This document shows positions 19,753-48,029 of a DNA stretch of 53,669 nt, piece by piece. The stretch comes from Nemertoderma westbladi (Eukaryota > Animalia > Xenacoelomorpha), in contig JAUCBJ010007683.1 in assembly GCA_032718475.1 (NCBI GenBank), forward strand, positions 1 through 53,669, given 5' to 3'. Position 1 is the first letter of the stretch; each line of letters starts with the position of its first letter. The position numbers and the translations under genes were made by a program. Under the pieces are notes generated by a model, which was not told where the DNA came from, made no database searches, and saw nothing but the letters and a program-made list of their open reading frames with translations.

Positions 19753-20144
19753 ACTACTACTACTACGATCGGCATACTGCATTACAGCTGCATTATATAT
19801 ATTATATAATTAGATTAGCATTATATATTAAGAATGATGTGCCGGCTTGTCGATAAAATTGCGCCGCCATAACTCCCTATCACCCATGACATTTGCTAGA
19901 TCATCCGCATCTTCAAGGCCAGTGTCCTTTAAGATGCGTCTCAAGAAAGTCGTGGGCTGTCCACCATGCTTATTCACTCCATGAAGCCGCCAAAGCACAA
20001 GATTATGCACTGGCTGGTCCTCACGGCGAAAGCAATGTCCTGCAAAGAGGAGGCGGTTCCGTCTAAGTGTCAAGCTAGGGGAGACTAATGGAACACCTCC
20101 AATGTTGTATAGAGTCTGATTGGAGATGTTTTCATTGTACTTGA
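19753..20144 (-). pseudogene. RTE LINE 3' part, left flank of the LTR element insertion
   Basis: RLLFAGHCFRREDQPVHNLVLW; (TAG)n tail at ~19753-19766; sequence resumes colinearly at 37283. Confidence 0.88.
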
Positions 20145-20268
20145 TATAGAATTATATTCCCTAAATGCCGTGGATTTTCAAAATTTATTTTTATTCGAAT
20201 TAACTTTGTAAAGATTGCTTTGAGTTCTCATTCGTATTGGTTCTATCATTTGTACATCTATCGGTCAA

Positions 20269-20356
20269 GTGGTTCAGTAGCTCAGTCGGTAGAGCGTTGG
20301 AAATTATATGTGTAGTAGGTATTGAGTTCGAATCCTAGTAAGTGCGAATTATTTTT
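20269..20356 (+). ncRNA. tRNA-like Pol III unit in LTR U3 (also ~35501-35589 and ~49518-49603)
   Basis: D-arm GCTC-AGTCGGTA-GAGC with A box, B box GTTCGAATCC, then a T6-7 terminator; acceptor and anticodon stems do not pair, so it is not a canonical tRNA. Confidence 0.6.
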
Positions 20357-20414
20357 TGTACAGAATTTCAACTCATTTAAATTAACCGCTACAAATTAAT
20401 TGCATTTGTCTGTA

Positions 20415-20682
20415 CCAATGAGACTGTAGTTATTTGATTGTAACCAATGTCGTGCAAGTTATATATTAGCTGGACCAATAGCTATCTTTAAAAACATGTT
20501 AGAACCCATAGAACAATCGAGAATTTTCTCGATTGATTGCGGCACAAATTTGGTATATAAAGGTGCGATTTCGTTCATTAGTTCACCTACTTCAATCTCA
20601 ATTGCTGATCTACCTTAACTTTCTGTCTTATTTCAGATTACATTGTTTATTGTATAATAGTTATTATATCTTTTGTAATAAA
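20415..20682 (+). promoter_or_regulatory. LTR Pol II promoter and polyA signal
   Basis: Three CCAAT boxes ~30 bp apart (20415, 20444, 20475), TATATAAA at ~20554, Inr-like TCATTAGTT at ~20575 and AATAAA at 20677; all conserved in the diverged copy-2 LTR. Confidence 0.7.
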
Positions 20683-22045
20683 AGTCAGAAATACTAGTCA
20701 CATCTCAGCCTTTTTCTATCTGTTTTATCATGGATTCACTACGGTGAACAAACTCAGGGACAGGATGGCCGGCTAGAGATCGGGCCGCAGCAATGAACGG
20801 GAACATCGGGGGAATGTAGACGAGAGACAACCCGCAATACCATCTAGAGTTATTCGCCCATCGCCTGAAAGGTTAGACAGCGTTCGATCCTTGCTACCTA
20901 AGTGTAAGACCAAAAGATCAAAAAGGTAGACGTAGTGACACGCTGTAAGCCTAAAATTACATCAAAGGGACTGTACTGTCTTGATTCAGGAAAAACCGCA
21001 GTAGACCTTCATATTCCTACGGGGGGGAGAGCGCAGGCAGATACTAGTACGCAGATAGGACGTAGGCACACCGGTACGAAGCATACACATTGGTTAGGGT
21101 GCAGCAAACTGTACGCTTAACTCTTGCTAAGTACAGGTGCGTCTGTGACTATTTGCCGTACAACGGTGTCCATTGCATTAGAACTTGTAGGCTAGGGGGG
21201 TTGCTGTGTTTTCACCTGAATTAGGATTGTACCGTTCAGGCGGTAGGGCAGTTTACGTACTAGGCGCAAATAAATTGAGGCTATTAGGGATACTAACATC
21301 TACCGTGTCCCCGCCAACGCCCTAATAGGAAGTTACCCGGACTACCTGGGTGACTAAAATTCTAGATAGGAGCCAGGATAGCTATTAGTACCCGTACGCC
21401 TACAGTAGTAAACTAACACATCTCTTCTTAGTATCAGGGACCTGGTACCTAAAATTGCCGAATTCTGGGCGTAGTATTAACCTTATGCCTGAATTTGAGT
21501 CCTGGAAATACGCAAGAGGGGAAGGAACCTTATCATTCGTGAGTATTGGACCTACAAGTTACAAAATTAGAATATTCGTAAAATGCACACCGTACCCAGT
21601 AATTATATATGTGAAGGAGCAAAACTGCTTTTGACCGTTCAGAATTAACACACGCGCGTTAGAAATTATTTACACCTCAAAATATATAAAATTAACTTTC
21701 GTCCTTACTGCACTTTGCTCGCTAGTTAGACATCTCCAAATATCTGCCTCTGTACCTAGCTAGCGTCCCTTTGCCCAACCATATAAATCACACCGCGGCA
21801 AAGTATACGAGCCTCTTAGTCCGTCAGTGAGTCAGCCTGATTTTAGGATTCGCTGCGCGGGATTTTGTTTTATCGAAGTTTGTCTGCTCGTAGACTGTTT
21901 TCTGCCTCACCGGTTATAAGAGATCGATACTGCAATATATTCGCTTACTTAGAGTTTACTGTTTTGGTGAGAAGGTCGGATTTATGATTTGATTCACAAA
22001 CTTTACAGTAGGATATTGCAGGTATTGTTGCTGTCTCTTCAATTA

Positions 22046-22056
22046 GTAGGAATATG
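22046..22056 (+). other. Non-tRNA primer-binding site GTAGGAATATG
   Basis: Immediately follows the 5' LTR, lacks TGG, and is the exact reverse complement of LTR 21010-21020 CATATTCCTAC. Confidence 0.7.
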
Positions 22057-22849
22057 TTTTACTGAACTACGGTTCAGTAGGACTAAAGTTATTTGAAAAT
22101 TTGTATTTTGAGGTAAAAATTTGTATTTGATTAGCTAAGTGCTAATTTTTGAAATAAAAATTTGATTTGAACCGCGTGTAAAATATTTGGAATTGAATAC
22201 CGGTGTTTAAAAGGGTTTAAATACCATATTGTACCGGTACAAAATTTTCGTAAAGTAAAACCTAACTCTTTTGTTTTTCAGGATTCAGAACTCATTTCTA
22301 GACTGTAACGGGAGCAAGACCGTGTTTAGCAAGTTTGGGAGATAGATAACTCAACAACTTTGGTTGGGAAAATCGCGTTTCGTCCGCAACGCTGAAAACG
22401 GAAAGGTTCACGTCCGGTTTGTATCTGGGGATCTGTTTTTCTGGAGAATTATTGGAGTGGGTGAGTTCGAAAAGTTGCATAAATAAGTTAGGCATTACCG
22501 TATTAGTTAAAATTATTGTGGGTTCCACTGTCTCAAGTATTTATGCATTCCGTATGATTTCTTTGTTCATTGCTGAATTAGTCCGTATTATTGTATTTAA
22601 TTTACCTTTTGATAACGCATATCGTTATCCGATTTATTTGTTATAAAATTGGCCGCTAGGCTAATTTTATTATATACTTATTCCGTGACATTTATTTGCT
22701 GTAAAATTGGCCGTTTAGGCTAATTTTATCCATCTGCTATAAAATCGGCCGGTAGGCTAATTTTATAAGACTGTAATTAGTACCGTTTTGTACAAATACG
22801 GTAAACTCGATACTTTAACACTCACTTTACTTGACTTACAACTACCGAA

Positions 22850-25800
22850 ATGAGTGACAAACAAGACTATACGAAGAATACACAAACCGACTATGACTCA
22901 TGCGACGGAGATAAGTCAGCAGCGGAAGAACAACAGGGGAAGACTCGCGAGCCTACCGAACCTACACCGTGTGCGTCACCAGTACATCCAACGGGAGTAC
23001 CGGATGCCGTAGTACGAGGTGACGGCAGGACCGAGGACTTTCTAACTGTTCCGCAACCTAGATATAGGGAAACGGACATGGTAAGTTCAGTAGGAAGCCA
23101 GGAGAGCGTAGTTAGAAGCGTCGGCGGTTACATGGCGCATATTACCAGAAGTATTGGAGAAGGCCAACGCATATTAGACGGGTTGACCGCTCCGATGTCT
23201 CGATTCGAGTTCTACACCCTCCAGGTTAGAGTACAGAGTAAAGTATATAAGTCCGTAGATAATCTAGTTGGCCTACAAGATCTAGCTAGACAGAGACAGG
23301 ACATGGATACTCAACTTAGAATCCTCGAGAAACTAATGATCGCTAGAGAGAAACTGATTCAGTTTAAGTCGACGATTAGACAGATACAACAGGAACAAGC
23401 GGACCAGTTGTTAGGTGAGTCAGTCTCGGACGAATTATTACAGCCCGAGGAAGAACAGGAATTGTACCGATTGGATGGACAATTGAAACATCTGACGGAC
23501 CACTTACGTATGTGCGGCGAAGACGTCAGCGATTCGGAAACCGTGCCGGAATATACGAGGGAAACTTCACCCGTACGAATCGAATCGGCACCGGGAATAC
23601 TGGACCAATCGTTAGTGAGTATTCGCAGCGAAATTGGCGAGATAAGTATAGTGACGTCAGAAATTTCCAGACAGCAACAACAGCACGACAGACAACAACG
23701 AGAAGCGGAGGAACAAGCACAACTGTTGACGGCACAAGCAGCGATGCAAGAAGAGAAACTACGCGTTGCGAATGTTGCAAGAATCTCTCATCTGCAAGAA
23801 CAAGCCGAGTTGGAAGCAGCTGAGATGGAAAGGTTGGAGCTAGAAATAGCACAGCGAACAGCGACAGCTGAGTTAGCGCAACAAGCGGCAGCAGCTGAGT
23901 TAGAACGACAAGCAGCAGCAGCGGAGTCGGAGCGACGAGCAGCAACAGCGGAACTAGAGCGACGAGCAGCGGAGTTGGAAGAACACAAGCGAGTTTCGGA
24001 GGCAAGAGCTGAAATGAAAAAACGGCAAATAAAGGCTCAATCAGCGATAAGACAAGCGGAGCTCGAGGCGCAACAACAACAGACGGAACAACGCGAGAAG
24101 GAAGTTAAACTTCATTTCGAACTCGGAAAGAAGGCGAGAGAATTAGCCAACGCGAAGGAAGATCTGGATCTACAAGCCCGCGATCGATCGATGAGATCTC
24201 GAGATGGACACGATCTAGACCAGTTAGAGGTAAGGCACCGCCAAATCCAGGAACGAATGAAGGAAGGTTCGGTAGGGGCACCTGGACGAGAAAGACAATT
24301 AGTTAAGGACTTATGTCAAAGATTCCCTCAGGTAACTCCTATGTTTGCACCTGTTACGACTAAGGAACCTGTTTCGATTGCTGGTAGCAGTGATATCTCT
24401 CCTATCCATGGTGTGACGGAACACAGGTTTGTTATTCCGGACAAGTTTATACCTTCAAGAGCAACGTCGTCGCCTATTCCGAAAGTCAAGGTAAGTAACC
24501 CGCCGATTACAGATCGTAGTAGTTTGTTGACTGGACCTGCACTACTGACGACTAAACAGGTGAGTCCACCGTCGACACCTAAACCTGTTACGCACTACGC
24601 TTACCCAATGACGTTTAGGCCAACAAGGCCTTTGGATTCAAATGCTGTTATTCGCCCACCGGTTCAGTTTACATCGCAATCTACGACTTCGAGGAAGACT
24701 TGTGAGCCTACCGAACAACGGAGACTAGTGGAAACGCGACCGTTCAACCAGTGTACATCGCAATCTACGACTTCGAGGAAGACTTGTGAGCCTACCGAAC
24801 AACGGAGAACAGCGACGCGACCGTTCAACCAATTTACATCGCAATCTACGACTTCGAGGAAGACTTGTGAGCCTACCGAACAACGGAGATCAGTGGACGA
24901 TGTTCCGAAGCGAAACGTTAGAATTCGTACGACGCAACGGACGCGAGCACGTCGACCACCATATCCAGATGATAGTAGTACTTCGAGCGAATCGGATTAC
25001 CCGAAACGCGAGGTATTTAGAACAGGGGCGGCCGATGAATACAAACGCGAGCGTTCAGACAACTCCTTTGCAGACAATCCTCCACAGAATACACCAACAC
25101 AGAAGGCGTTACAACCAACGGACGCAATTAGTACACAACAGTTCGCCGACATCCTGCGACCAGTTGTTAACAAGTTGGCTCAGATCGAGGAACGTCTGGA
25201 GGAAGGTTACACCGACAGTTCGAGAAATTCCGAATTCGAACACAATAGACACCCGAAGGAACCACAAAGACCGGTACCTTCAAACCCCACATCGTATCAG
25301 GGAAAAGCGCCAAGAAGGGATATCAACCAAGTTACCAACCAAGGACGCGAAACTCTGAACGTTGCCGAGGAGATAGCGAAATTCGCAGCCAGACAAGGAT
25401 TGCCGGTACAACAACCACCGAAGTTTTCTGGTAGCTCAAAACACTGGCATACTTTCGTAGACTATATCGAATCCCAGATCGCCGTGTGCGCCTTTACATC
25501 ACGGGAGAAGTTTAATTACCTGCTTCAAACGTTGTCAGGAGAACCTAAACGTTTGGCGGAGACTTTCGTCGGTGTACCGGACGCTTTCGAACTAGCGTAC
25601 GATCGTTTAACTTCGATATACGGAGGTACAGTTAGTATGGCCAGGTCAGTAATAGAGGAACTCTGTAAGGGAGGGGCTATCACTAAACCCGTCGACTTAT
25701 TAAAACTAGCTGACGAGATCAAGAACGCTATCACTACCTTAAGATCAATTGGACAACTTGATTACGGGAATACCCCTACAGTCCTATTAAAGATCATAGG

Positions 25801-28800
25801 ACGACTCCACCATCGACTTCGTCGGGAGTGGAGGAAGGTCGAATACCAGCGAGAAGAGCGGGGAGGATTCTTAAAATTAGAAGATGTGTACCTTTTAATA
25901 TCCAGGGAGGCAGTAGTAGAAACTAGATCTAACTACACCGACCAGCACATCGTGGCAGAAGGGATCACATTGCCATCCTCCAACCGACAAAAACCCCAGA
26001 CAACATCCACTAAGACGGCCACTTACACCACACCGACGGAATCACGACAATTCTCGGACGGTAGTAGGGTATCTGCGCCCATTGGGACAAAACAGACGAG
26101 ACAACAACTCGGTACCGACTTCAGCGGCTGCCAATACTGCGAGCATCTAGGCAAGCGGTATATCGGTCACAAGTTACGAGGTTGTCGACAATTTCGCGAG
26201 TTGAACTCGGAAGAACGAAGGCTGCAAATACGGCCACTGGACTCTTGTTGGCGGTGTACGCGACACGGACACGTCCGTAAAGATTGCCCAAATACCGACA
26301 CTTGTCCATCCTGTGGACGCAACCACGACGGTCTGCTCCACACAGACAGCCACACGCCGACAAAACGCTTCGCCAGGGAACACCCGGAAGCAGCAGCGAG
26401 ATGTGATGCGGCCTACCGAAAACGAGAATCTAAAACGACTCCAACCTTCGTGACCCATATTGAGGATTGCTTCTCAGAACAATCCGGATCGTCGGACGAA
26501 GAGTTAGAAGACGACGACGAATATTCCAATGGAGACGAACAACCGTCGATCGCGCTTCTGACTACTGACCAACTGAAGGGATTCAGTGTAATTCCGATTA
26601 AGGTTACTGGCACAAAAGGGAGCAAAAGAAACTACGCGATTCTAGATTCAGCCTCATCTCATAGCTACGTGGATGAAAAGATAGCTGACGTAGTGACGGA
26701 TCTTAAACAAGGTAAGCACGTCAGTTATACCGTAAGTAGTATGCACGGACAGCGTGCAATACCAGTGACACGAGTTAAGTTGGACTTAGACTCTCTTCTT
26801 CCGAAATCGCAACACAGCGAGAGGGAGAGGTCTTTGTTGCCCTTTAAAGATCTAACCTTTGCGGCTACGAAGGACTTTAGTAACCTACTAGGTCCAGTGC
26901 CGGAACAATCTCTAGAGGACCGTAAGTATTTCAGACACCTTGGTGTACCCGAATGTCCTGTCAATTATAGATCGGTAGCAATGCTGATCGGGACGGACCA
27001 ATTCAACCTACATCAGGTGTGGGAAACCAGACCATCGGCAGTCGTAGCGGGAAACGCATACGCCTGCAGAACGCCGATAGGGTGGTATACTCGAGCGCCT
27101 GTGCGCACACTAGACGTAAGTGACGAGGAAGACGATGTACAGAGTACATGTAGTTTATTAACTACAAATTCAATTCATTCCTTTTCACACGACGTGAACC
27201 ATACTACACTACAGTCGACAAAACATGACAGACGTGTAACTAGTATGATAAGTCACAAGGAGCAGCTAATCCACAAGGTGAGTTTAGAACTTGGGGAGAA
27301 GACGAGTCAGCTAGAGACTCCATCGACGACAGATGATAGGCTTGCGAGTCTACCTACCCCAACAACTTCAACAATACCCGTCGACATCGATGATGACGCG
27401 TTGAGAAATCATCAAATGGAACAAGCCGCTTTGGACAAAGAATTAACGGAGAAGACTATCAGGTGGTTAGAACAAGATACAGCTGAACCTGGTAGCTACG
27501 AACCTTGTATGTCGGAACAGGAGAAACAATCTCTGAAGATCATGGAAGATACTATCCACCAGACGAAGGACGGACATTATGAGGTAGGGATGTTATGGTG
27601 TAGCCAAAGTCCTAAACTTATAAACAACTACCCACTGGCTTTAAGACGTCTACACTCAATACGGCAACGTCTATTAAAGGACGAGAAGGCCCATCTGCAG
27701 TACAACACTCAGATGGAGACGTATTTGACAAAGGGATACGCTATCCGAATGACTAACCCGGAGATAGTGACTGACCAAACATATTACTTGCCACATCACT
27801 ATGTGAGACACCCCGACAAACCAGATAAAGTACGCGTAGTCAACGACTGTGCGGCTCTGTTTGAGGGAATGTCCCTCAATAGTGAGTTGATGGATGGACC
27901 AAACATGAATAATTATCTTATGGGGGTGATTATGCGCTTCCGTCAGCGTCAAGTAGCCTTTACTTGCGACATTGAAGCGATGTTTCACCAAGTGAAAGCG
28001 TTAGAGCGAGACAGAGACAGTTTGCGGTTCCTCTGGTATCCGGAAGGAGATTTAAGTCTACCACCGGCGACTTACCAAATGCAAGTTCGCGTTTTCGGTG
28101 CCAGAGACAGCCCAAATTGCACGATGTACGCCCTAAAGCAGGCCGCTAGAGATCAGAAACACCTATATGACCCAGAGATAATTAAAATCGTAGAACGTGA
28201 CTTTTACGTCGATGACGGTTTACAGAGTTGCGACACAGTAGAACGTGCTACAACAGTAGCACATCAATTACGGGACTGCTTAGCGAGCGGAGGTTTTAAC
28301 CTCACCAAATTCGCCTCAAACAGTGCCGAATTAGTAGACTCATTCGGGACGACTGAGCGTGGAGGTGGTGACATAGACCTAGAGTTCGAACCACTACCGA
28401 CGACTAAGGTGTTGGGGCTCTTTTGGGACCCAAACACAGACAACTTTCGAGTGAAAGTGAGACTGGACAGTCAAGAGAACACACTGACAAAGAGATCATG
28501 CTTGTCAAAGTTGAGCCGATTGTTCGATCCGTTAGGATTCATCAGTCCAGTGATACTGCAAGCCCGCATTTATATGCGCAGTATATGGAAGGATGGACTA
28601 ACATGGGACGAGCCGATCTCATCAGACCAAGTGGACTTATGGAAGACCTGGGAGGCGGAATTATCTTCGCTAGAGGATTATTCCATACCCAGGGTTTACT
28701 TTCCATTACAAAGTACATTTCCTGACAACTTGGAACTACACTGTTTTTCTGACGCCAGTGACAACGGTTTTGGTGTGGCAGCGTACTTGCGCAGACAAGT

Positions 28801-31585
28801 AGAATCAGACGAGTTCGATGTTTCGCTCATTACTTCTAAGGCTAAGACCATGCCTACTAAGTATATGACGACACCACGAGCCGAGCTACAAGCCGCAACC
28901 CTGTCAACCACCATCGTGAACCTCATACAGACAGAACTACAGTCGAGTTTACAGATATTTTATTGGACTGACGCGACGTTGGTTTTATTTTACATAAACA
29001 ACGACACACTCGAATTCAAGACATTCGTAGCTAACCGTCGCGCGGAAATTCTAGACCGTTCAATAAAAGAGGATTGGCGACATTGTCCCGGACCACAAAA
29101 CCCAGCTGATATTGCGTCGCGAGGAATGATGCCTGAGGAATTCTGTAAACCGGAGAACAAAGAATTTTGGCAACACGGACCCCAATTCTTGCAGAAATCG
29201 ACACAAGATTGGCCTCCGTTATACGACAACAAATCCAACACTATCCCTAAGGACGCCGAAATCAAGAAACCAAAAAAGGGGAAGACAAAGAAAAAGACGA
29301 CGGCGGCAAAACTCAAGAAAAAACCAAAGGCGAAATGGAAAGATATAACTTCAAAGGTCAAGAGAGGAAGACTTGCGAGCCTTTCTAAACCAGACATATC
29401 GCCAGACGGTCAACCAGACACGTTACTAGACGGTCAACCAGACATTCTACCAGACACTAGTGACATACTGACAAACAGTAAAGCCGCAGTTTCCCTATTG
29501 GAGCGGCCTTCTATTGACAAACAACCAGATACGTTACCAGACGTATCGCCAGACACATTACTAGACAGTCGACTAGACATTTTGTCAGAAACATCACAAA
29601 ATGTTCTACCGGACATTAGTAATTTATCGACTAACAGTAAAGCCGCAGTTTCCCTATTGGAGCGGCCTTGTATTGACAAACTACCAATTTTGACACACTT
29701 GAGCAACCATAAGCACGGTGAAACCTCATGTATTACAGATGTGGGTAGTACCTACGCTAATGTAAATACAGGTGTTACTTTGCGCTCAAGAGACATACCG
29801 AACTTGCAACCTATGGTGAAACCTGGGATTAATATCGGCAGAAAAATTAGTTTACCGAAACCCACTGATCCCATAGAGTTCAAACCACCATTAACGATCG
29901 ACTTACAAAGTACCGACAATCAAGGTAAGAAGACAAAGAAGGACAAATTACTTGTAGACCCGGACGGATCAACAGTCAACAAGGGAATACCTACCGGCGG
30001 ACCCGTGGGCCCTTCTAGTAATTCAAAACCTTCCAAAATCTCAATTGACTTACCTGATGACGTCACAAATACTCATGTCGACCGTATTGTAAACCTAACA
30101 GATTCTTGGACAAACGCTTGCCGAAAATTAGCGTGGATTGTACGTTTTGTACAATACGTTAAAGGCAAACGTGACTTTACACGTCGACTTACATTGGCTG
30201 AGATTGACAGGTGTGAAATTAAATTAATTCGCCATTACCAACTGCGATATTTCGCGCGCGAATTCACATCCATAAATCAAGGTCAACCAATCAAGTCGTC
30301 ACCAATATTGAGTTGGAGTCCGATTATTTATAATGGCTTAATTTGTCATAAATCTCGGCTTCAAAACATTGACTTTAACACAAACTTTAGGTACCCAATA
30401 ATAATACCGCAACATCACGAACTACAACGTGCAATGATACTGGATGCACATTTACATCTGAAACACGCTGGAAGACACCACTGTCTTTCCTACTTACGTA
30501 CTAGATTTGTATTAATTAGACCCAGTAAAGCATTAAGTTCAGTGACACGTATGTGTATTATTTGTAAAAAGGTACATTCTAGAATAGGTACCCAAGAAAT
30601 GAGTGAACTACCACAAGCACGACTTCAAGCATTCAGACCACCTTTTACCGAGACTGGAATTGATTGCTTTGGTCCCATACATACGAAACGTGGACGTATA
30701 CTAGTAAAACGCTGGGGACTGATTTTCACATGTATGTCCAGTAGGGCAGTTCATATTGAACGTGTGATGGATCTTTCCACCAACGCGTTTATACTAGCAC
30801 TGCGGCGATTTATCGCTAGACGCGGACTAGTAAAATGCTTGTACTCAGACCAAGGGACAAACTTTGTTGGTGCTCGGAATGAGATTGCTAGAGCCTTTAA
30901 AAAATTAGATCACGATCAAATCTCGAACGAACTGCAACCTCACAAGATTGTTTGGAAGTTCAATCCTCCAGATAGTCCTTGGAGAGGCGGAGTCTGGGAG
31001 AGATTGATTAGATCTATAAAGACAGCCATGGCAAAAGTCATTCCAGTAAACCACATACTGACAGACGACCAACTGACAACATTGTTTGTTGAAATCGAGG
31101 CAATACTAAATACTAGACCAATAGTATTAGTACCCGATGACAAACAATCTCAATTTGCTTTAACACCGGCACACCTGCTTATGCAGGCACCGACTACTTT
31201 GACGCCGATTTCTATTCCAATAGAAAGCGACAGCTACGGTAGAAAAGCGTGGAAAATCACGCAACTACTGGCTAACAAATTCTGGGAAATATGGCAAAAC
31301 CATTATTTGCCCTCTATTTCTGCCAGAACAACTTGGTACAATAACACCCGCGCATTAAAGCCGGGAGATCACGTGCTGTTAGCGGAAGTGAATCTAAAAA
31401 GACGCTTCTGGATAACAGGTGTAATTTTAGCCACACATCCATCTATGGATGGAGTGACAAGGACTGTGACGGTACGGACAATTGACGGTCGTACAGTAGA
31501 CAGACCGACTCAACGTCTCGTACTTCTGGAAGAGACTCGTAACGAGTCTGGAGACTACAAATCTCCACCTAATACTAGTAAATAA
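22850..31585 (+). CDS. BEL/Pao Gag-Pol polyprotein, 2911 aa, intact
   Basis: Coiled-coil N-terminus; Gag core PPKFSG..HW..F...EKFNYLLQ; three BEL-type Cys/His knuckles; protease YAILDSAS; RT YLPHH, DIEAMFHQV, FYVDD; RNase H LHCFSDAS, PRAEL, WTDA, NPAD; integrase HHCC, GIDCFGP, SDQGTNF, GGVWERLI. Confidence 0.97.
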   Translation: MSDKQDYTKNTQTDYDSCDGDKSAAEEQQGKTREPTEPTPCASPVHPTGVPDAVVRGDGRTEDFLTVPQPRYRETDMVSSVGSQESVVRSVGGYMAHITRSIGEGQRILDGLTAPMSRFEFYTLQVRVQSKVYKSVDNLVGLQDLARQRQDMDTQLRILEKLMIAREKLIQFKSTIRQIQQEQADQLLGESVSDELLQPEEEQELYRLDGQLKHLTDHLRMCGEDVSDSETVPEYTRETSPVRIESAPGILDQSLVSIRSEIGEISIVTSEISRQQQQHDRQQREAEEQAQLLTAQAAMQEEKLRVANVARISHLQEQAELEAAEMERLELEIAQRTATAELAQQAAAAELERQAAAAESERRAATAELERRAAELEEHKRVSEARAEMKKRQIKAQSAIRQAELEAQQQQTEQREKEVKLHFELGKKARELANAKEDLDLQARDRSMRSRDGHDLDQLEVRHRQIQERMKEGSVGAPGRERQLVKDLCQRFPQVTPMFAPVTTKEPVSIAGSSDISPIHGVTEHRFVIPDKFIPSRATSSPIPKVKVSNPPITDRSSLLTGPALLTTKQVSPPSTPKPVTHYAYPMTFRPTRPLDSNAVIRPPVQFTSQSTTSRKTCEPTEQRRLVETRPFNQCTSQSTTSRKTCEPTEQRRTATRPFNQFTSQSTTSRKTCEPTEQRRSVDDVPKRNVRIRTTQRTRARRPPYPDDSSTSSESDYPKREVFRTGAADEYKRERSDNSFADNPPQNTPTQKALQPTDAISTQQFADILRPVVNKLAQIEERLEEGYTDSSRNSEFEHNRHPKEPQRPVPSNPTSYQGKAPRRDINQVTNQGRETLNVAEEIAKFAARQGLPVQQPPKFSGSSKHWHTFVDYIESQIAVCAFTSREKFNYLLQTLSGEPKRLAETFVGVPDAFELAYDRLTSIYGGTVSMARSVIEELCKGGAITKPVDLLKLADEIKNAITTLRSIGQLDYGNTPTVLLKIIGRLHHRLRREWRKVEYQREERGGFLKLEDVYLLISREAVVETRSNYTDQHIVAEGITLPSSNRQKPQTTSTKTATYTTPTESRQFSDGSRVSAPIGTKQTRQQLGTDFSGCQYCEHLGKRYIGHKLRGCRQFRELNSEERRLQIRPLDSCWRCTRHGHVRKDCPNTDTCPSCGRNHDGLLHTDSHTPTKRFAREHPEAAARCDAAYRKRESKTTPTFVTHIEDCFSEQSGSSDEELEDDDEYSNGDEQPSIALLTTDQLKGFSVIPIKVTGTKGSKRNYAILDSASSHSYVDEKIADVVTDLKQGKHVSYTVSSMHGQRAIPVTRVKLDLDSLLPKSQHSERERSLLPFKDLTFAATKDFSNLLGPVPEQSLEDRKYFRHLGVPECPVNYRSVAMLIGTDQFNLHQVWETRPSAVVAGNAYACRTPIGWYTRAPVRTLDVSDEEDDVQSTCSLLTTNSIHSFSHDVNHTTLQSTKHDRRVTSMISHKEQLIHKVSLELGEKTSQLETPSTTDDRLASLPTPTTSTIPVDIDDDALRNHQMEQAALDKELTEKTIRWLEQDTAEPGSYEPCMSEQEKQSLKIMEDTIHQTKDGHYEVGMLWCSQSPKLINNYPLALRRLHSIRQRLLKDEKAHLQYNTQMETYLTKGYAIRMTNPEIVTDQTYYLPHHYVRHPDKPDKVRVVNDCAALFEGMSLNSELMDGPNMNNYLMGVIMRFRQRQVAFTCDIEAMFHQVKALERDRDSLRFLWYPEGDLSLPPATYQMQVRVFGARDSPNCTMYALKQAARDQKHLYDPEIIKIVERDFYVDDGLQSCDTVERATTVAHQLRDCLASGGFNLTKFASNSAELVDSFGTTERGGGDIDLEFEPLPTTKVLGLFWDPNTDNFRVKVRLDSQENTLTKRSCLSKLSRLFDPLGFISPVILQARIYMRSIWKDGLTWDEPISSDQVDLWKTWEAELSSLEDYSIPRVYFPLQSTFPDNLELHCFSDASDNGFGVAAYLRRQVESDEFDVSLITSKAKTMPTKYMTTPRAELQAATLSTTIVNLIQTELQSSLQIFYWTDATLVLFYINNDTLEFKTFVANRRAEILDRSIKEDWRHCPGPQNPADIASRGMMPEEFCKPENKEFWQHGPQFLQKSTQDWPPLYDNKSNTIPKDAEIKKPKKGKTKKKTTAAKLKKKPKAKWKDITSKVKRGRLASLSKPDISPDGQPDTLLDGQPDILPDTSDILTNSKAAVSLLERPSIDKQPDTLPDVSPDTLLDSRLDILSETSQNVLPDISNLSTNSKAAVSLLERPCIDKLPILTHLSNHKHGETSCITDVGSTYANVNTGVTLRSRDIPNLQPMVKPGINIGRKISLPKPTDPIEFKPPLTIDLQSTDNQGKKTKKDKLLVDPDGSTVNKGIPTGGPVGPSSNSKPSKISIDLPDDVTNTHVDRIVNLTDSWTNACRKLAWIVRFVQYVKGKRDFTRRLTLAEIDRCEIKLIRHYQLRYFAREFTSINQGQPIKSSPILSWSPIIYNGLICHKSRLQNIDFNTNFRYPIIIPQHHELQRAMILDAHLHLKHAGRHHCLSYLRTRFVLIRPSKALSSVTRMCIICKKVHSRIGTQEMSELPQARLQAFRPPFTETGIDCFGPIHTKRGRILVKRWGLIFTCMSSRAVHIERVMDLSTNAFILALRRFIARRGLVKCLYSDQGTNFVGARNEIARAFKKLDHDQISNELQPHKIVWKFNPPDSPWRGGVWERLIRSIKTAMAKVIPVNHILTDDQLTTLFVEIEAILNTRPIVLVPDDKQSQFALTPAHLLMQAPTTLTPISIPIESDSYGRKAWKITQLLANKFWEIWQNHYLPSISARTTWYNNTRALKPGDHVLLAEVNLKRRFWITGVILATHPSMDGVTRTVTVRTIDGRTVDRPTQRLVLLEETRNESGDYKSPPNTSK

Positions 31586-32245: not shown

Positions 32246-34564
32246 ATGGAGAAAGGGATACAAGGAGAGCCGAGATGGGGATATGATATCCAAGAGGAGG
32301 CAGCAGCGCCATTCGAAAGATTTGGAGCCAAGGACTATACTATATTTGGTATAAAGGAATTATCGGAAAGTACAGCGAAACTCGCAAAGACTAAATATGA
32401 ATGACTCGAACGTATTAAAGAGAAGGCAAAACGCATTAAACGAAAGAATCGAAAGTTTGCGCCAAACCTTCAACGAACTTTACCCGTACGACGCTTTGTG
32501 TGATACGGGAGACATTAGCGAAGACCCCGATACTGAAATTAGTCGTTTGCATCATACCATGCAATACCTGAAGGCGCACGAACCTATGCCCGCGGTACGC
32601 GATGAATTCGATGGAATGCATCTTTACAGACGAACTCGAGGAGACGATAGAGAAACCAAGGAAGCATTTTCGGTTTATAAACTTTATTATCAATGCGGTT
32701 CTTGTATGCGCGAACAACGAAATGCGATTCCGATGCGTTTGAATAAGGAAAATCCCGAACCGATATTGGCAAGGTGTTCGAATCATCAACAACTACGCTA
32801 CCAGGAAGGAGGGTATCCTTTATCGAATCCATATCATTCGTTTGCTATGACCGGACCAAAGGCGGGAGAAACTGTCATTTACCCACCTAAGGTCGTTGAA
32901 CCCGATGTATTTGAACTTACGCTGGACGAGGCAAATCAGTCAACCCGCGAAAAGAAAGAAGCTCTTAGCCTATACAGAGCCTACAAGGCTTTCGAGAAAG
33001 GTGAGATGGAAGAATGGGGCGGAAGACTCGCGAGCCTACCTTACCATTGGACGTCACACGATCAAACTTCAGCTAAAGAGATGACACCGGAAGTTTTCGA
33101 GAGCATAAACTTTGCTCAAAACGTATCGTGGAGATTATGGATGAATCACGGCAGACGCGCGCGCCTATCGGTCACCTTGGTGATGATTTCGAAGTAACTA
33201 CTACGATCACTGACGATCCTTTAGAAGAACTTCTTGAGATAGAAAGGAACCTCCCGAAGAAATCTCAGACGGAGATTCGACAACTTGAAGCAACAGATGC
33301 TATAGTTTGTATACAACCTTCAGAAACCTACCAACCCATAGACCCAGATGATTACGATTATAGTATGGGAGGAAGCGCTCGACCGATTGGAGATCTTATA
33401 TACGAACGAGTGTGGTACCCTGCCAATACGATGTGTAGTAAATGTGGCGTCGCTGGACATCATATGACAAAGTGCAGTGGAAAGCACATTACTACGACTC
33501 AGCTAATCTGTGGATGGTGTGGGGATCAAGGGTCTCATACCTTTTATACTTGCTGGAGATTTATGGCTCAATGTACTTACTGCAATATAAAAGGACATCG
33601 AGCATCTGAATGCCAACTAAGAGACATACCTTATGAACACGAATCTGTAAAACTCGTGAGGAAATTATTTGATGAGTGGGAAGATTTAGCCGACGAACAT
33701 GTATCGGCACAAAGAAGACGGTTTCCGATGAGGGCGCATCTTGGATTTTGGGCGGTAAATCCTCAAACGATGATGTCGGAAGGATATATCTCCGCTATGC
33801 CCCAATATGACGAACTTATCGAGGTAGTCGATATTTTGCCCCACGACAGCGGATTCCGAGTGGTGCGCGAGTATCTACTACAGATTCACCCGGATAACAA
33901 AAACACGTGGAATTTTCAGAAAGTCGTTAATCGGATTACGTATGGTGAATTCGATCGTTTCCGAACTGAAAAGCGGAACAAAGGAGCTTGGTTAACCGTC
34001 GCATGGGCGTACCGAGCCGCGTTTTACCATAAACGTATACGAGCGAGCGTATTCGAGGAAGAGGAGGTCCTAGAGGCGACAAATATACCAGCCACTCCGG
34101 TTGCGCCGTCTGCACGTCACCCTCGGGAGGACGGACAGGGTAGGATCATACGGGTCCAGAAAGTGGGCCAACAATTAAAGAAAATTATTAATGTAGAAGA
34201 ACGCAAGGGAGTTGAGCCGACCATTCGAGTTACTCGGGATACGGTATCACTTCCAAGAGAACCAGTAGGAGGATCGGGACATACACCAGCTGATCAACAG
34301 GGGGCGCAAGCTACTCTTGGGTCTGCGTTGTCCACTTCTCGCGCGTTCCCAGACGTTCTACCAACTGTAGTGACAACTAATCGGTCACGAGGAATCGGTC
34401 GAGGTTTTGGGATGCCAAATAGACGAATTTGCGAGGAAGTAGTCGCACCGTCTCTCAACGTCCCAAGTAAACCAGTGACTCGCCCCATTAGTCCCATATC
34501 GCGAGCAAAGTCACCTGTGCGCAGTTTTCGAGGACGCGGCAGGGCTCGATCTACTAAGCGATAA
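32246..34564 (+). pseudogene. Accessory ORF2 of copy 1, disrupted (4-bp ATGA duplication at ~32397; 1411-bp deletion at 33120-33124 removes the exonuclease domain)
   Basis: Colinear with 44829-48552 except for the segment between the two AACGT repeats (45699 and 47110); keeps the three CCHC knuckles and the RG-rich tail. Confidence 0.9.
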
Positions 34565-35368: not shown

Positions 35369-35376
35369 TGGAGCGG
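35369..35376 (+). other. Short PPT-like tract (TGGAGCGG) abutting the 3' LTR
   Basis: Identical in copy 2 (49382-49389); sits at the PPT position. Confidence 0.55.
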
Positions 35377-37277
35377 TATAGAATTATATTCCCTAAATGC
35401 CGTGGATTTTCAAAATTTATTTTTATTCGAATTAACTTTGTAAAGATTGCTTTGAGTTCTCATTCGTATTGGTTCTATCATTTGTACATCTATCGGTCAA
35501 GTGGTTCAGTAGCTCAGTCGGTAGAGCGTTGGAAATTATATCTGTAGTAGGTATTGAGTTCGAATCCTAGTAAGTGCGAATTCTTTTTTGTACAGAATTT
35601 CAACTCATTTAAATTAACCGCTACAAATTAATTGCATTTGTCTGTACCAATGAGACTGTAGTTATTTGATTGTAACCAATGTCGTGCAAGTTATATATTA
35701 GCTGGACCAATAGCTATCTTTAAAACCCCGTTAGAACCCATAGAACAATCGAGAATTTTCTCGATTGATTGCGGCACAAATTTGGTATATAAAGGTGCGA
35801 TTTCGTTCATTAGTTCACCTACTTCAATCTCAATTGCTGATCTACCTTAACTTTCTGTCTTATTTCAGATTACATTGTTTATTGTATAATAGTTATTATA
35901 TCTTTTGTAATAAAAGTCAGAAATACTAGTCACATCTCAGCCCTTTTCTATCTGTTTTATCATGGATTCACTACGGTGAACAAACTCAGGGACAGGATGG
36001 CCGGCTAGAGATCGGGCCGCAGCAATGAACGGGAACATCGGGGGAATGTAGACGAGAGACAACCCGCAATACCATCTAGAGTTATTCGCCCATCGCCTGA
36101 AAGGTTAGACAGCGTTCGATCCTTGCTACCTAAGTGTAAGACCAAAAGATCAAAAAGGTAGACGTAGTGACACGCTGTAAGCCTAAAATTACATCAAAGG
36201 GACTGTACTGTCTTGATTCAGGAAAAACCGCAGTAGACCTTCATATTCCTACGGGGGGGAGAGCGCAGGCAGATACTAGTACGCAGATAGGACGTAGGCA
36301 CACCGGTACGAAGCATACACATTGGTTAGGGTGCAGCAAACTGTACGCTTAACTCTTGCTAAGTACAGGTGCGTCTGTGACTATTTGCCGTACAACGGTG
36401 TCCATTGCATTAGAACTTGTAGGCTAGGGGGGTTGCTGTGTTTTCACCTGAATTAGGATTGTACCGTTCAGGCGGTAGGGCAGTTTACGTACTAGGCGCA
36501 AATAAATTGAGGCTATTAGGGATACTAACATCTACCGTGTCCCCGCCAACGCCCTAATAGGAAGTTACCCGGACTACCTGGGTGACTAAAATTCTAGATA
36601 GGAGCCAGGATAGCTATTAGTACCCGTACGCCTACAGTAGTAAACTAACACATCTCTTCTTAGTATCAGGGACCTGGTACCTAAAATTGCCGAATTCTGG
36701 GCGTAGTATTAACCTTATGCCTGAATTTGAGTCCTGGAAATACGCAAGAGGGGAAGGAACCTTATCATTCGTGAGTATTGGACCTACAAGTTACAAAATT
36801 AGAATATTCGTAAAATGCACACCGTACCCAGTAATTATATATGTGAAGGAGCAAAACTGCTTTTGACCGTTCAGAATTAACACACGCGCGTTAGAAATTA
36901 TTTACACCTCAAAATATATAAAATTAACTTTCGTCCTTACTGCACTTTGCTCGCTAGTTAGACATCTCCAAATATCTGCCTCTGTACCTAGCTAGCGTCC
37001 CTTTGCCCAACCATATAAATCACACCGCGGCAAAGTATACGAGCCTCTTAGTCCGTCAGTGAGTCAGCCTGATTTTAGGATTCGCTGCGCGGGATTTTGT
37101 TTTATCGAAGTTTGTCTGCTCGTAGACTGTTTTCTGCCTCACCGGTTATAAGAGATCGATACTGCAATATATTCGCTTACTTAGAGTTTACTGTTTTGGT
37201 GAGAAGGTCGGATTTATGATTTGATTCACAAACTTTACAGTAGGATATTGCAGGTATTGTTGCTGTCTCTTCAATTA
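35377..37277 (+). repeat. 3' LTR of copy 1
   Basis: Direct repeat of 20145-22045. Confidence 0.95.
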
Positions 37278-38090
37278 CTTGACACAATGAACCCGGCGCA
37301 GCATTATTGTGAAAGTGCCATCCAGAGATTTGGTGTCCTCAGCTGTTAGAGCCCAGCAATGCCAGGATGGACTCCCATATAGAGTACTGGTACTACTTCT
37401 GCCATAAATACTCGAACCAGAGGTTCCGTTTTATTCTATGGGACTTCCAAATCCTGGACAGACTATTTAACGCTGCCCATGCCTTCCCCTTACGTATCCG
37501 AAGGTCTTCACCTGACTTTCTGATCCATGATCCCAAGTAGCAGAAGTCATCCACGTGCTCAAGAAAGCCATCCGTAGAGCTTATGCCCTTACGATTAGAC
37601 ATTTCTTGAGGGCTGTCTAGGTTGACTGTCATGATTTTGGTCTTCTTGGAATTTGCAAAAAGACCAACACTAGAAGCAACCTGCTTCGATGAGCAGAGGA
37701 GCCGTTGGGTTCCCTCTAGTGATTCTGACAGTACCCTTAAGTCATCAGCAAAGTCTAGATCAGTTAGGTACTTTGCTGGATTTCCTCTACTTATTGTGCC
37801 AGTAGCGGGTGTTACCATCACCCCATCTTTATTAAGATGGTCTAAGGACATGCGTAGAACATAATCAACAACCATTACGAATAAGAATGTTGCAAGTGTG
37901 TTACCCTGAATGACTCCCCATAAGACTTCGAATGGATCTGTGTTACAAACAGCAGTAGACACAAATGTGATGGAACCATCGAACAGTGATCTGATAGCTG
38001 CAATAATTTCCTCTGGAATCCCATATGCTGCCGGTATGCTGAAAATACGTGGTCGTATAATAGCCAGTTGTCTGTCTTTCTTTCGGAAAC
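37278..38090 (-). pseudogene. RTE LINE RT fragment, right flank (continuation of 19753-20144)
   Basis: GVIQGNTLATFLFVMVVDYVLR, YLTDLDFADD and FCYLGSWI. Confidence 0.9.
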
Positions 38091-44290: not shown

Positions 44291-44828
44291 GTATAAGAAA
44301 TGGAATTCTACTTGGAACTCACAATATTGAGACATTTTCGAAATTTTAGACAATCCATTTGGATTTGAAAAATTTTTAAAATTTTCTCCAGTGAATAGAT
44401 TTCAGGGTACAGTCGGGTGGAACTTAAAATTAGAGAAACAAGAAAGGAAGACTCGCGAGCCTTTCTTAAATTTTAATTAAATTTTACACGGTCTTGTTTC
44501 AATAAGTTACGTCGAATAATAGACTTCCCTATATTTATTACTAACTCTTGATTGCTTATTTTCTGATAATAGTTTGGGATCAAAAAGTGAGTATTTTAGA
44601 CTCACAGCCAGTTTAGCCCAAATTCGTTTTTATTTCGGCAAAAAAAAAAAAATTTTAGATAAGAAGCAGCGTGTCATTAAAGAAACCCTAGATCTTAGGC
44701 TATGGGTAGGAGGTTAGAGCGTTGTCGAGCCAAAAAGGCAGACGAAAACTCTCACATCTCCTCACAACTAACAATAAACTCTGTTGTATTCCCTCTAGTA
44801 GTATGATTATGTAACCATACCTCTAATA

Positions 44829-47800
44829 ATGGCGAAGGGGATACAAGGAGAGCCGAGATGGGGATATGATATCCAAGAGGAAGCAGCAGCGCCATTCGAA
44901 CGATTTGGAGCTAAGGATTACACTATATTTGGAATTAAGGATTTATCAGAAAGTACAGCGAAACTCGCAAAGACCAAATATGACTCGAATGTATTAAAGA
45001 GAAGGCAAAATGCGTTAAATGAAAGAATCGAAAGTTTACGTAAAACCTTCAATGAACTTTACCCGTACGACGCTTTATGTGATACGGGAGATATTAGCGA
45101 AGATCCCGATACCGAAATTAGTCGTTTGTATCTTACTATGCAATACCTAAAGGCACATGAACCTATGCCCGCGGTACGCGATGAATTCGATGGAATGCAT
45201 CTTTACAGACGAACTCGAGGGGACGATAGAGAAACAAAGGAAGCATTTTCAGTTTATAAACTTTATTATCAATGCGGAGCTTGTATGCGCGAACAACGAA
45301 ATGCGATTCCGATGCGTTTGAATAAGGAAAATCCCGAACCGATATTGGCGAGGTGTTCGAACCATCAACAACTACGCTACCAGGAAGGAGGGTATCCTTT
45401 ATCGAATCCATATCATTCATTCGCTATGACTGGACCGAAGGCGGGAGAAATTGTCGTTTACCCACCTAAGGTTGTTGAACCCGATGTATTCGAACTTACG
45501 CTGGACGAGGCGACTCAGTCAACCCGCGAAAAGAAAGAAGCTCTTAGCCTATACAGAGCCTACAAGGCTTTCGAGAAAGGCGAGATGGAAGAATGGGGCG
45601 GAAGACTCGCGAGCCTACCTTACCATTGGACGTCACACGATCAAACTTCAGCTAAGGAGATGACACCGGAAGTTTTCGAGAGTATAAACTTTGCTCAAAA
45701 CGTTATTCAGAGACTACAGATTGCATCCCCGGAAAGGACAAGAGAAATGCAACCGTATAGTACTTCAACTACGAAACCATTGAGTACGACACTCAATTTC
45801 CCTATTAGTATACCAGTTCGACAAGATACAACGTATGAAATACCTATTGTGGATCATCCGGAAATCATTTCGAACTTAGAGTTTCTTCCTGCAGTTGTTC
45901 TAAGCGATATGGTTAAGATATATGATTTACGTAGACATATTACGCAAAAGGTCGTGCATAATGTTCCGCCTAATATTCAAGACTTTAGGGAACTGGATAG
46001 AGCTGGCGCTGATATAGCTCCAAGTAACCTGAAAGGATATTTAACCAAAACAATTCGCTTATGGATTGGAACAGGAACCTTTGAGTCGGATACAGATATC
46101 GCTGCGGACTGGCAAGGTAAAGTCATTCGTTTCGAGGACGAGAAAGACATAGAGAAGATTTGGCAACCTTCGGAAGAATTATTGGACGAATGGAATAGGA
46201 CGTTTAGATCGTTTCAGGAAAACGGTTACATGTTTTATGATAACGAGGGCGGCAGCCATCAGCAGAGTCTAACCTCCAAGACTATACAAATTAGAGCGGC
46301 AGACGGAGTTTTGCACGTTTTCAGTAGACAAAGGAGCGACAAGCGAATGCCGATACCTCCAGGAACTACAAAGCGGCACCATTTCATCACTAATATAGTA
46401 AAGAAAATGGACCAGGCTTGCAATATCGATGCTAGAATGTTACCAAAGACGGTGAGAAATATGATTTTAGATAAAACTGTTGTAAAGATTGGATCAGGAG
46501 TAAGAGAGGACTTAATTAGCGACTTCGCCGGCATGTCGGACAGTGACGACCGATTACCGACACCTTACGTCGACACTCGACCTCTTATACTGTGGTCTAT
46601 AGAACAAGGATACTTCCGTGAGTATGATACTCAGAAAACCGGAACTGGATATATTTCCTACTTGATGTTTAATTGGGATTACAAGGAAAGTAAAAGAACA
46701 AAGTATATCGAAACGTATGGAGAAGGTGATACTCCAGATATAAATGAGTTTGAATCACAGCTCAAATGGAGAGGATGCGTATATTGGGCTATTACTTCAC
46801 CTCCAAGAGCGGTACTACAATATTATTTAGCGATAGAGTCATCAGTGAATGTTTGCTTAGTCGCCGACATTGTGTCTCGGACTCTTAAAAGACATCCACT
46901 TTGCCTCGGAGAAGATCATACATTCTACGCGGAAGGGAGAATTCATACTGATGTGTTTAGACGGTTTCTCGAACCCTTCTACAATTCCGACGCTCAGTGT
47001 AATGCCTTCACTCGAGCAGGATTTAGTATATTTCGAGACGTGTATCTTCGCTGTGCGGGATCTCTTATCGAAAGACCATCTATGTTTACATTGTTACCCT
47101 ATGAAGGAGAACGTATCGTGGAGCTTACGGACGAATCACGGCAGACGCGTGCGCCTATCGGTCACTTAGGTGATGATTTCGAAGTAACGACGGCCATCGA
47201 TGATCCTTTAGAGGAACTTCTTGAGATTGAAAGGAACCTCCCGAAGAAATCTCAGACGGAGATTCGACAATTAGAAGCAACAGATGCTGTAGTTTGCATA
47301 CAACCTTCTGAAACATACCAACCTATTGATCCAGACGATTATGACTATAGTGTGGGAGGAAGCGCTCGACCCATTGGCAATCTTATATATGAGCGAGTGT
47401 GGTACCCTGCTAATACGATGTGTGGTAAATGTGGCGTCGCTGGACATCATTCGACAAAGTGCAGTGGAAAGCACATTACTACGACTCAACTGATTTGTGG
47501 GTGGTGTGGAGATCAAGGGTCCCATACATTTTATACTTGCTGGAGATTTATGGCTCAATGCACCTACTGCAATATAAAGGGACATCGAGCATCTGAATGC
47601 CAACTGAGAGACATACCTTACGAACACGAATCTGTAAAACTCGTGCGAAAACTATTTGATGAGTGGGAAGATTTGGCTGACGAACATGTAGCAGCGCAAA
47701 GAAGACGGTTCCCGATGAGAGCGCATCTTGGATTTTGGGCGGTAAATCCTCAAACTATGATGTCGGAAGGATATATCTCTGCTATGCCGCAATATGACGA

Positions 47801-48029
47801 ACTCATCGAGGTAGTTGATATTTTGCCTCACGATAGCGGATTCCGAGTTGTGCGCGAATATTTGTTACAGATACACCCTGACAATAAGAATACATGGAAC
47901 TTCCAGAAAGTCGTTAATCGTATCACCTATGGTGAATTTGACCGTTTCCGAACGGAAAAGCGGAACAAGGGAGCTTGGTTAACCGTCGCATGGGCGTACC
48001 GAGCCGCGTTCTACCATAAACGTATATGA
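44829..48029 (+). CDS. Accessory ORF2: DEDDy 3'-5' exonuclease (WRN/Mut-7/RNase D-like) plus 3 CCHC zinc knuckles; ancestral end at 48552 (~1240 aa)
   Basis: ExoI YMFYDNEG, TIQI, ExoII LPKTVRNMILDKTVVKIGSGVRED, YVDT, ExoIII W....P....QYYLAIE; knuckles CGKCGVAGHHSTKC, CGWCGDQGSHTFYTC and CTYCNIKGHRASEC; TGA at 48027 is CGA in copy 1. Confidence 0.8.
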   Translation: MAKGIQGEPRWGYDIQEEAAAPFERFGAKDYTIFGIKDLSESTAKLAKTKYDSNVLKRRQNALNERIESLRKTFNELYPYDALCDTGDISEDPDTEISRLYLTMQYLKAHEPMPAVRDEFDGMHLYRRTRGDDRETKEAFSVYKLYYQCGACMREQRNAIPMRLNKENPEPILARCSNHQQLRYQEGGYPLSNPYHSFAMTGPKAGEIVVYPPKVVEPDVFELTLDEATQSTREKKEALSLYRAYKAFEKGEMEEWGGRLASLPYHWTSHDQTSAKEMTPEVFESINFAQNVIQRLQIASPERTREMQPYSTSTTKPLSTTLNFPISIPVRQDTTYEIPIVDHPEIISNLEFLPAVVLSDMVKIYDLRRHITQKVVHNVPPNIQDFRELDRAGADIAPSNLKGYLTKTIRLWIGTGTFESDTDIAADWQGKVIRFEDEKDIEKIWQPSEELLDEWNRTFRSFQENGYMFYDNEGGSHQQSLTSKTIQIRAADGVLHVFSRQRSDKRMPIPPGTTKRHHFITNIVKKMDQACNIDARMLPKTVRNMILDKTVVKIGSGVREDLISDFAGMSDSDDRLPTPYVDTRPLILWSIEQGYFREYDTQKTGTGYISYLMFNWDYKESKRTKYIETYGEGDTPDINEFESQLKWRGCVYWAITSPPRAVLQYYLAIESSVNVCLVADIVSRTLKRHPLCLGEDHTFYAEGRIHTDVFRRFLEPFYNSDAQCNAFTRAGFSIFRDVYLRCAGSLIERPSMFTLLPYEGERIVELTDESRQTRAPIGHLGDDFEVTTAIDDPLEELLEIERNLPKKSQTEIRQLEATDAVVCIQPSETYQPIDPDDYDYSVGGSARPIGNLIYERVWYPANTMCGKCGVAGHHSTKCSGKHITTTQLICGWCGDQGSHTFYTCWRFMAQCTYCNIKGHRASECQLRDIPYEHESVKLVRKLFDEWEDLADEHVAAQRRRFPMRAHLGFWAVNPQTMMSEGYISAMPQYDELIEVVDILPHDSGFRVVREYLLQIHPDNKNTWNFQKVVNRITYGEFDRFRTEKRNKGAWLTVAWAYRAAFYHKRI

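Follow-up and report, generated by a model that had tools for sequence, protein, structure and literature searches.

The window analysed here, a stretch of 53,669 nt from a contig of Nemertoderma westbladi, holds a BEL/Pao element of 17.1 kb at 20145-37277 (copy 1) and, at about 38400-50371, a truncated copy 2 that retains neither a 5' LTR nor a primer site. Their main parts are:

20140..20144, + strand: left target-site duplication, in its 5-bp reading, inside a LINE fragment
20145..22045, + strand: 5' LTR of copy 1, 1901 nt, with TA..TA ends; contigs from sequencing runs show loose ends at 20145
22835..31585, + strand: gag-pol frame of 2916 aa without interruption, in which motifs of protease, RT, RNase H and integrase follow one another in this order
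32355..34564, + strand: copy 1 accessory gene, split over two frames and missing an internal 1.4 kb that copy 2 has
35370..35376, + strand: short purine tract adjoining the start of the 3' LTR
35377..37277, + strand: 3' LTR of copy 1, which includes a second copy of the 11-mer discussed below, at 36242-36252
37278..37282, + strand: right target-site duplication, in its 5-bp reading
44802..48029, + strand: accessory frame of copy 2, 1075 aa, with a possible DEDD 3'-5' exonuclease (about 46230-46841) and two CCHC knuckles

The two LTRs of copy 1, each of 1901 nt, are 6 substitutions apart. The insertion target was a LINE fragment, for which another LINE copy at 9570-9620 provides the corresponding empty site. 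Target duplications of 5, 6 or 7 bp each fit, placing the right end of the 5' LTR at 22045, 22044 or 22043, and symmetry favours 22045. The LTR termini thus read TA..TA rather than TG..CA, with the right end ambiguous by 2 nt; this end can also be read as the CA of related elements followed by their usual spacer, as if spacer trimming had been lost. Copy 1 is a young, intact element. The 1.4-kb deletion in its accessory gene is flanked by 5-nt direct repeats, and the accessory frame downstream of pol shows no strong hydrophobic segment. Elsewhere in the window, a host BACK-TLDc exon (BTBD9-like) lies at 13859-14935, with at most 44% identity to the animal proteins listed, which points to an animal host distant from well-annotated genomes.

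The gag-pol product carries the Pao peptidase A17 (PF05380, E 2e-42), DUF5641 (PF18701) and DUF1759 (PF03564), and the acidic motifs of RNase H were found in pol, where the examination covered the catalytic motifs only. PF05380 is also present in all 120 RT relatives listed. Copy 1 therefore shows the features by which BEL/Pao elements are recognized, both in its enzymes (Pao-type pol domains in the order PR-RT-RH-IN) and in its structure (two LTRs, a target duplication and a purine tract). The 18-nt site matching the 3' end of a host tRNA, which also belongs to the ICTV description of Belpaoviridae, is missing, with no TGG at the LTR edge; since this departure from the ICTV description is itself the finding, we file copy 1 under BEL/Pao by its pol gene only. 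The RT is about 44% or less identical to its nearest proteins, among the matches listed, and falls on a long branch in RT trees built without the named BEL/Pao clade references (Sinbad, Suzu, Dan, Flow and others).

An earlier note, made from the sequence alone, had proposed that this element primes reverse transcription with its own RNA, through pairing of the sequence after the 5' LTR with an 11-mer inside the LTR. The elements concerned are:

21010..21020, + strand: candidate self-primer 11-mer, with its putative 3' end at 21020
22046..22056, + strand: primer-binding site, reverse complement of the 11-mer, without TGG, its first bases GT as in most relatives
50268..50278, + strand: the 11-mer in the partial LTR of the truncated copy 2, whose primer site is not preserved
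20999..21005, + strand: stretch by which the primer duplex may grow 7 bp on its 5' side, pairing probability 0.2-0.3
22057..22082, + strand: hairpin of 11 bp with a UACG loop, directly 3' of the primer site, z -2.8
21024..21045, + strand: stretch that may form a flanking helix with 22021-22040 at the U5 end, shuffle p 0.06, not common to relatives

The sequence bears out the core of this proposal. The 11-mer occurs exactly at 21010-21020, 36242-36252 and 50268-50278 on the + strand, and 22046-22056 is its reverse complement; the LTR is not followed by TGG; and the polarity is right, with C21020 pairing with G22046. That the site lies directly after the LTR holds under the 5-bp duplication, the right end shifting with the 6- or 7-bp readings. 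The match was also said to be rare by chance, and this stands: a match of at least 11 nt at the same offset arose in 2 of 5000 Markov-simulated LTRs, and with any offset from 0 to 5 in 20 of 5000. Among the 778 leader positions, 3 have an 11-nt match in the LTR, namely the primer-site position and two others. The 11-mer is indeed unchanged in copy 2, as had been pointed out, but this is weak evidence, as 270 of the 955 11-mers in the same part of the LTR are unchanged too.

The primer duplex could be extended by 7 bp between 20999-21005 and 22058-22064, and 1026 nt separate the 3' end of the primer from the primer site. Tf1, the self-priming retrotransposon of fission yeast, requires a helix next to its cut. 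The candidate flanking helix of copy 1 reaches -19 kcal/mol (shuffle p 0.06), and 13 of 1845 windows are equally good. Several other candidates were rejected: no Rfam family or ribozyme matched the LTR near threshold, no tRNA gene was found in the element by ARAGORN or Rfam, and for a primer made by splicing in copy 1 the best junction gave 9 nt, equalled by 6 of 25 shuffles. With a junction match no better than chance, copy 1 is a contiguous-type member in the sense used below for its relatives.

Variation within the family could be followed in six public sequencing runs that contain all or part of the window. None is listed as RNA, and all were read as contigs, which cannot reveal transcription starts. 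For runs X1 and X3, variants with a share of at least 8% were tabulated across 20985-22095 (1111 nt), giving 29 variable sites (21 substitutions and 8 indels). The 11-mer carries no such variant in either run. The only one in the primer site is 22054 A>G, at 31% and 29%, which turns an A-U pair into G-U; otherwise the site is kept at 92% or more. The earlier note had named a TGG site in most family copies as evidence against self-priming; no common TGG form appears in X1 or X3. With 29 variable sites in 1111 nt, an 11-mer free of variants is expected by chance about 3 times in 4, and a random transition within the primer site preserves pairing in 4 of 11 cases, and the variation is thus consistent with self-priming while lending it weak support. 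Both runs also contain, at 21982-22054, forms with a replaced U5 end and the same primer site, as well as forms in which a site-like stretch is duplicated in the U5 end; 22054 A>G may belong with the latter. The U5 end in the window has a decayed site-like copy at 22008-22016 (9 of 10 positions). Substitution-rich contigs were seen at 21198-21902 and 20230-20540, one of them A>G-rich in X4 and one with 60 changes in X1 and X3; they may stem from A-to-I hyper-editing, the second being perhaps fixed in DNA.

The strongest evidence comes from related elements. A metagenome scan of 27 of 64 parts yielded at least 574 confirmed stretches, the best 80 of which gave 74 loci; 17 of these were left out for want of a 5' end, and 57 were examined. 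Scans of viral contigs for relatives returned no loci. A primer site complementary to the element's own LTR over 10-15 nt was found in 32 of the 57, either across a splice junction (25 loci) or contiguously (7 loci: L012, L015, L023, L029, L035, L046 and L054, the last of which may be of the splice type with its donor beyond the contig). Among the 25, the GT..AG junction in the locus's own LTR was detected by script in 24 and by eye in L028, which is identical to L008. Only two loci, L063 and L064, have TGG sites of the tRNA type; they sit together in one starred 5-row clade, separate from the self-complementary families. The remaining 23 loci fall in no class and are mostly contigs lacking an LTR or junction, with L056 a true miss: its LTR end is mapped and no own-LTR match was found.

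An unbiased measure is provided by the nine loci whose LTR end was set independently by direct repeats. None of them has TGG, and eight match their own LTR, six of them unequalled in 100 shuffles each and two once the boundary had been corrected. We also compared 23 families, copy 1 counted, which were chosen because they match: their own matches of 10-15 nt compare with a mean of 4.7 nt in 506 foreign pairs, 22 of which reach 10 nt, most strongly between families with the same site. These families use 19 distinct 11-mers; in 21 of the 23, copy 1 among them, the primer site starts with GT. The longest match of the copy 1 site to a foreign LTR is 7 nt. The check for covariation suggested in the earlier note is positive at the level of families, in that primer sites differ in their letters and each matches its own LTR; no close sister of copy 1 with a compensatory change was found among the relatives examined. 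A site starting with AT instead of GT was observed in the splice-type loci L020, L042, L051 and L059.

Two contiguous relatives are of particular interest. L046 has the junction CA-ATTA-GT, the same as copy 1, and L012, which has no spacer, shares with copy 1 a starred 16-row set of the RT tree that includes five splice-type rows besides L012 (a quick tree, in which long-branch placement is unsure). A poly(A) hexamer follows the primer end by 12-128 nt in 10 of 13 relatives, an arrangement that priming in cis would require, and a TATA-like word precedes the primer by 47-64 nt in 4 of 6 contiguous relatives. Secondary structures are less uniform: a flanking helix reaches p <= 0.05 in 1 of 23 families, and neither this helix, nor a U5 hairpin, nor a hairpin after the site proved general among relatives.

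How the primer of copy 1 could be exposed depends on where transcription starts and how the RNA folds. The features that bear on this are:

20278..20357, + strand: U3 unit with an A box (20278-20289) and a B box (20326-20334) of tRNA type and a T6 run, present in the three LTR copies only
20554..20561, + strand: putative TATA box of an upstream promoter, called from its sequence
20677..20682, + strand: AATAAA upstream of the primer
20872..22281, + strand: GT..AG intron containing the 11-mer and the primer site, with its joint in run X4
20952..20958, + strand: TATA-like word 58 nt before the primer, a weak candidate for a downstream promoter
20973..21232, + strand: predicted long irregular RNA rod, the 5' arm of which holds and masks the primer
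21269..21274, + strand: first AATAAA downstream of the primer

The joint of 20872 to 22281 was seen in X4 only, in a single contig of depth 250 whose shorter side spans 25 nt, and is absent from X1, X3 and X5. It implies an RNA start upstream of about 20845. X4 had been labelled DNA by guess; from this joint and from an excess of A>G changes over the LTR (58 of 153, against 26 of 125 in X1), we infer that it behaves like RNA. The earlier note had offered two starts. A sole start at 21010 is unlikely, given exon sequence upstream of 20871 in the spliced X4 contig. The alternative, a TATA-driven RNA with the primer about 440 nt inside it, agrees with the only RNA-like evidence, the upstream start implied by X4, but the predicted rod would mask the primer in such an RNA. 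The AATAAA at 21269, invoked for strand transfer, is present downstream of the primer, and a second one lies upstream at 20677.

None of 20 shuffles folds as well as the region 20740-21500 (z -4.6). In RNAs starting at or before 20980, the rod is predicted to beat primer pairing, with a margin of 14-17 kcal/mol at those starts that were folded under constraints; for starts at or after 20985, the predicted probability of primer pairing rises from 0 to 0.8-1.0. A start near 20985-21000 would thus be the best fit of the three start options, bearing in mind that folding predictions for RNAs of 1-2 kb are uncertain and that nucleocapsid could remodel the fold. A TATA-like word at a comparable distance is found by background at 8-18% of positions. 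A short intron, 20872-20989, was considered as a means of unmasking the primer and rejected: the gap falls to 4-5 kcal/mol, the fold is not switched, and the joint was unseen.

The A/B-box unit in U3 (1 of 2000 shuffles as good) may serve as an element for Pol III or TFIIIC. As a tRNA it was rejected, with no cloverleaf fold (z -0.5) and an end that differs from the 11-mer. The first bases of the surrounding unit, 20269-20357, are complementary to 22060-22070 (10 of 11), the 5' arm of the hairpin that follows the primer site. The leader ahead of the start codon contains three 35-nt repeats with inverted arms (22636-22768).

Because the primer site is complementary to an 11-mer of its own LTR and offers no TGG to the end of a tRNA, self-priming is the likely explanation, and we estimate from the sequence comparisons a probability of about 0.85 that copy 1 self-primes in some form. 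The match, the missing TGG and the intact enzyme motifs are observed, and so is an equivalent arrangement in relatives whose letters differ. The idea first proposed, that the element's own RNA takes the place of a tRNA as primer, gains its support from these differing sites, each matching its own LTR, and from the lack of a common TGG subfamily. The route itself, cis self-priming from an RNA that starts shortly before the primer and is cut by RNase H after 21020, has somewhat better than even chances in our judgement; we infer the start, the cut and the enzyme for the primer of copy 1. The replicating RNA would start at about 20985-21000, leaving the primer internal by only 10-25 nt and so able to escape the masking rod. 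The primer would then fold onto the site 1 kb away, and the element's RNase H would make its cut behind 21020, in the manner of Tf1 from yeast. Reverse transcriptase would copy U5 and R back to 21021, and transfer to the 3' end would use RNA extending beyond the 11-mer to the AATAAA at 21269. RNA from the upstream TATA would be mainly mRNA, since either its fold hides the primer or its splicing removes both primer and site.

Another source of the primer would be an RNA 3' end bearing the 11-mer, supplied by the 3' LTR copy (36242-36252) or by a short LTR transcript acting in trans, which a 3'-5' exonuclease of the element would trim back as far as the duplex, without internal cleavage. This suits the upstream TATA start and leaves about 435 nt of R. 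The accessory frame of copy 2 may supply the enzyme: its first match in the atlas is PF01612, in a cluster of 3'-5' exonucleases (0.87, below the 0.9 mark), all 10 of the best named matches belong to one family or clan, NCBIfam offers a single match, to DNA polymerase III epsilon, which covers the first motif (E 0.03-0.07), and DEDD motif-like words can be picked out by eye at aa 477, 561 and 673. Genes of this kind occur in gypsy elements of rotifers, where a part in 3'-end processing has been suggested for them (PMC5408684, in the part available). However, the exonuclease call lies under every threshold; searches of Pfam, PDB and PHROGs gave no match and no homologs were found, a single-sequence structure model is unusable (pLDDT 33), and a DEDD identity is to be taken as a lead only. 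Moreover, the young copy 1 lacks the exonuclease segment, self-complementary relatives show no such gene, so that the clade does not need an exonuclease, and the 3' copy of the 11-mer would be masked by the same rod. We consider this source unlikely. Slightly less probable still is a combined reading, in which a BEL/Pao lineage primes with its own RNA 3' end or an LTR RNA in trans, the end is trimmed to the duplex edge by a captured DEDD exonuclease without internal cleavage, the rod and the alternative splice select replicating transcripts, and the lineage belongs to a wide animal clade with mostly splice-built primers.

A different possibility is that a host RNA, a tRNA fragment or another small RNA, primes at the site while the LTR 11-mer only regulates access to it. 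The ICTV describes the family as tRNA-primed (PMC8742986), half-tRNA primers occur in copia lineages (PMC6317226, in the part available), and the relatives L063 and L064 keep TGG sites. Against this, each of 19 different 11-mers would need both a host RNA and an LTR copy ending exactly at the first base of the site, and 25 loci have no match until the RNA is spliced, which makes a host primer quite improbable. More doubtful again is a host RNase specific for double strands that would release the primer from the rod of 260 nt and leave a 3'-OH. The 11-mer does lie in the 5' arm of the rod, X4 has its A>G excess over the LTR, and of 8 common rod variants 3 preserve pairing, 4 fall on unpaired bases and 1 disrupts a pair; the rod, however, is irregular, the bond 21020|21021 lies mid-helix, and copy 2 substitutions break 8 predicted pairs and keep 5. 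A chance match or a decayed tRNA site, which the two other matching leader positions of 778 and the decayed site-like repeat in the U5 end might suggest, is very improbable for a site at the LTR edge with a clade-wide GT start, in an intact young element, kept at 92% or more bar one wobble variant.

Self-priming is absent from the standard description of BEL/Pao. A self-encoded primer has reportedly been described in a nematode BEL element, as the earlier note mentioned, and no such case was found in the literature searched. Nor was a report of self-priming or splice-made primers in BEL/Pao found there, in a literature that was available in part, includes PMC3601003, PMC6934838, PMC13524379, PMC8220671 and PMC12786077, and leaves most subscription papers, Repbase and GyDB notes outside its scope. 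The words primer, PBS and tRNA do not occur in the main text of a BEL/Pao survey (PMC3118150), nor do PBS and tRNA in PMC554778. Should self-priming extend across a wide aquatic clade, a third superfamily would have evolved or retained priming without tRNA; this would account for the missing tRNA sites in such elements, which, we suggest, would also lie beyond tRNA-fragment defences. The matched pairs in many families specify the exact primer end and so allow a direct test by RNA-end sequencing.

BEL/Pao is one of three large LTR superfamilies of animals, described as tRNA-primed and with a replication that is "poorly understood"; for Belpaoviridae the ICTV gives LTRs of 0.2-1.2 kb, genomes of 4.2-10 kb and an 18-nt tRNA site (PMC8742986). 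Copy 1 resembles them in its peptidase A17, DUF1759, DUF5641, PR-RT-RH-IN order, single gag-pol frame, LTRs and purine tract, and differs in having no 18-nt tRNA site, an LTR of 1.9 kb and a length of 17.1 kb, both above the ICTV ranges, and TA..TA ends. The rotifer gypsy elements Juno and Vesta carry a DEDDy ORF3 (PMC5408684, in the part available), and copy 2 is like them in carrying, downstream of pol, an additional gene whose possible 3'-5' exonuclease motifs are a lead only; Juno and Vesta are gypsy elements, not BEL/Pao, and the same part of that paper shows no link to priming.

The closest parallel in mechanism is Tf1, in which, according to the available parts of PMC7175516, PMC4600332 and PMC6317226, an 11-nt LTR stretch is complementary to the site after the LTR, no tRNA takes part, and RNase H cuts between bases 11 and 12. 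Self-priming is known, from the parts of these papers and of PMC5341516 available, in the Ty3/gypsy groups Tf1/Tf2 of Schizosaccharomyces pombe, Tj1, Tf1/sushi and Tcn1, and is predicted for the TAR lineage of Ty1/copia (PMC6317226); in Tf2, alternative starts yield non-replicating RNA (PMC5341516). Copy 1 shares with Tf1 the tRNA-free site adjoining the LTR and the LTR stretch of about 11 nt complementary to it. Its pol domains, in contrast, are of BEL/Pao and not the Ty3/gypsy chromovirus RT and integrase that define Tf1/sushi: copy 1 probably operates like Tf1 yet lies outside the Tf1/sushi group. It also differs in a primer that is probably internal and 1026 nt from its site, where Tf1 uses the first 11 bases of its transcript, in a predicted masking rod, and in a splice that removes primer and site together.

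Compared with the aquatic BEL/Pao relatives (L003-L071), of which the literature searched gives no description, copy 1 has the same missing TGG, the mostly shared GT start and a complement in its own LTR (10-15 nt in relatives). Six or seven of them are contiguous like copy 1; most need splicing to build the primer, which splicing removes in copy 1. Their LTRs are mostly 0.3-0.9 kb long with TG..CA ends and spacers of 0-5 nt, against 1.9 kb and TA..TA in copy 1; their primer end lies 78-252 nt from the site, against 1026 nt; and no accessory gene was detected in them, whereas copies 1 and 2 have one. To this clade copy 1 contributes a contiguous version with long-range pairing, whose priming appears to be turned off by folding and splicing.
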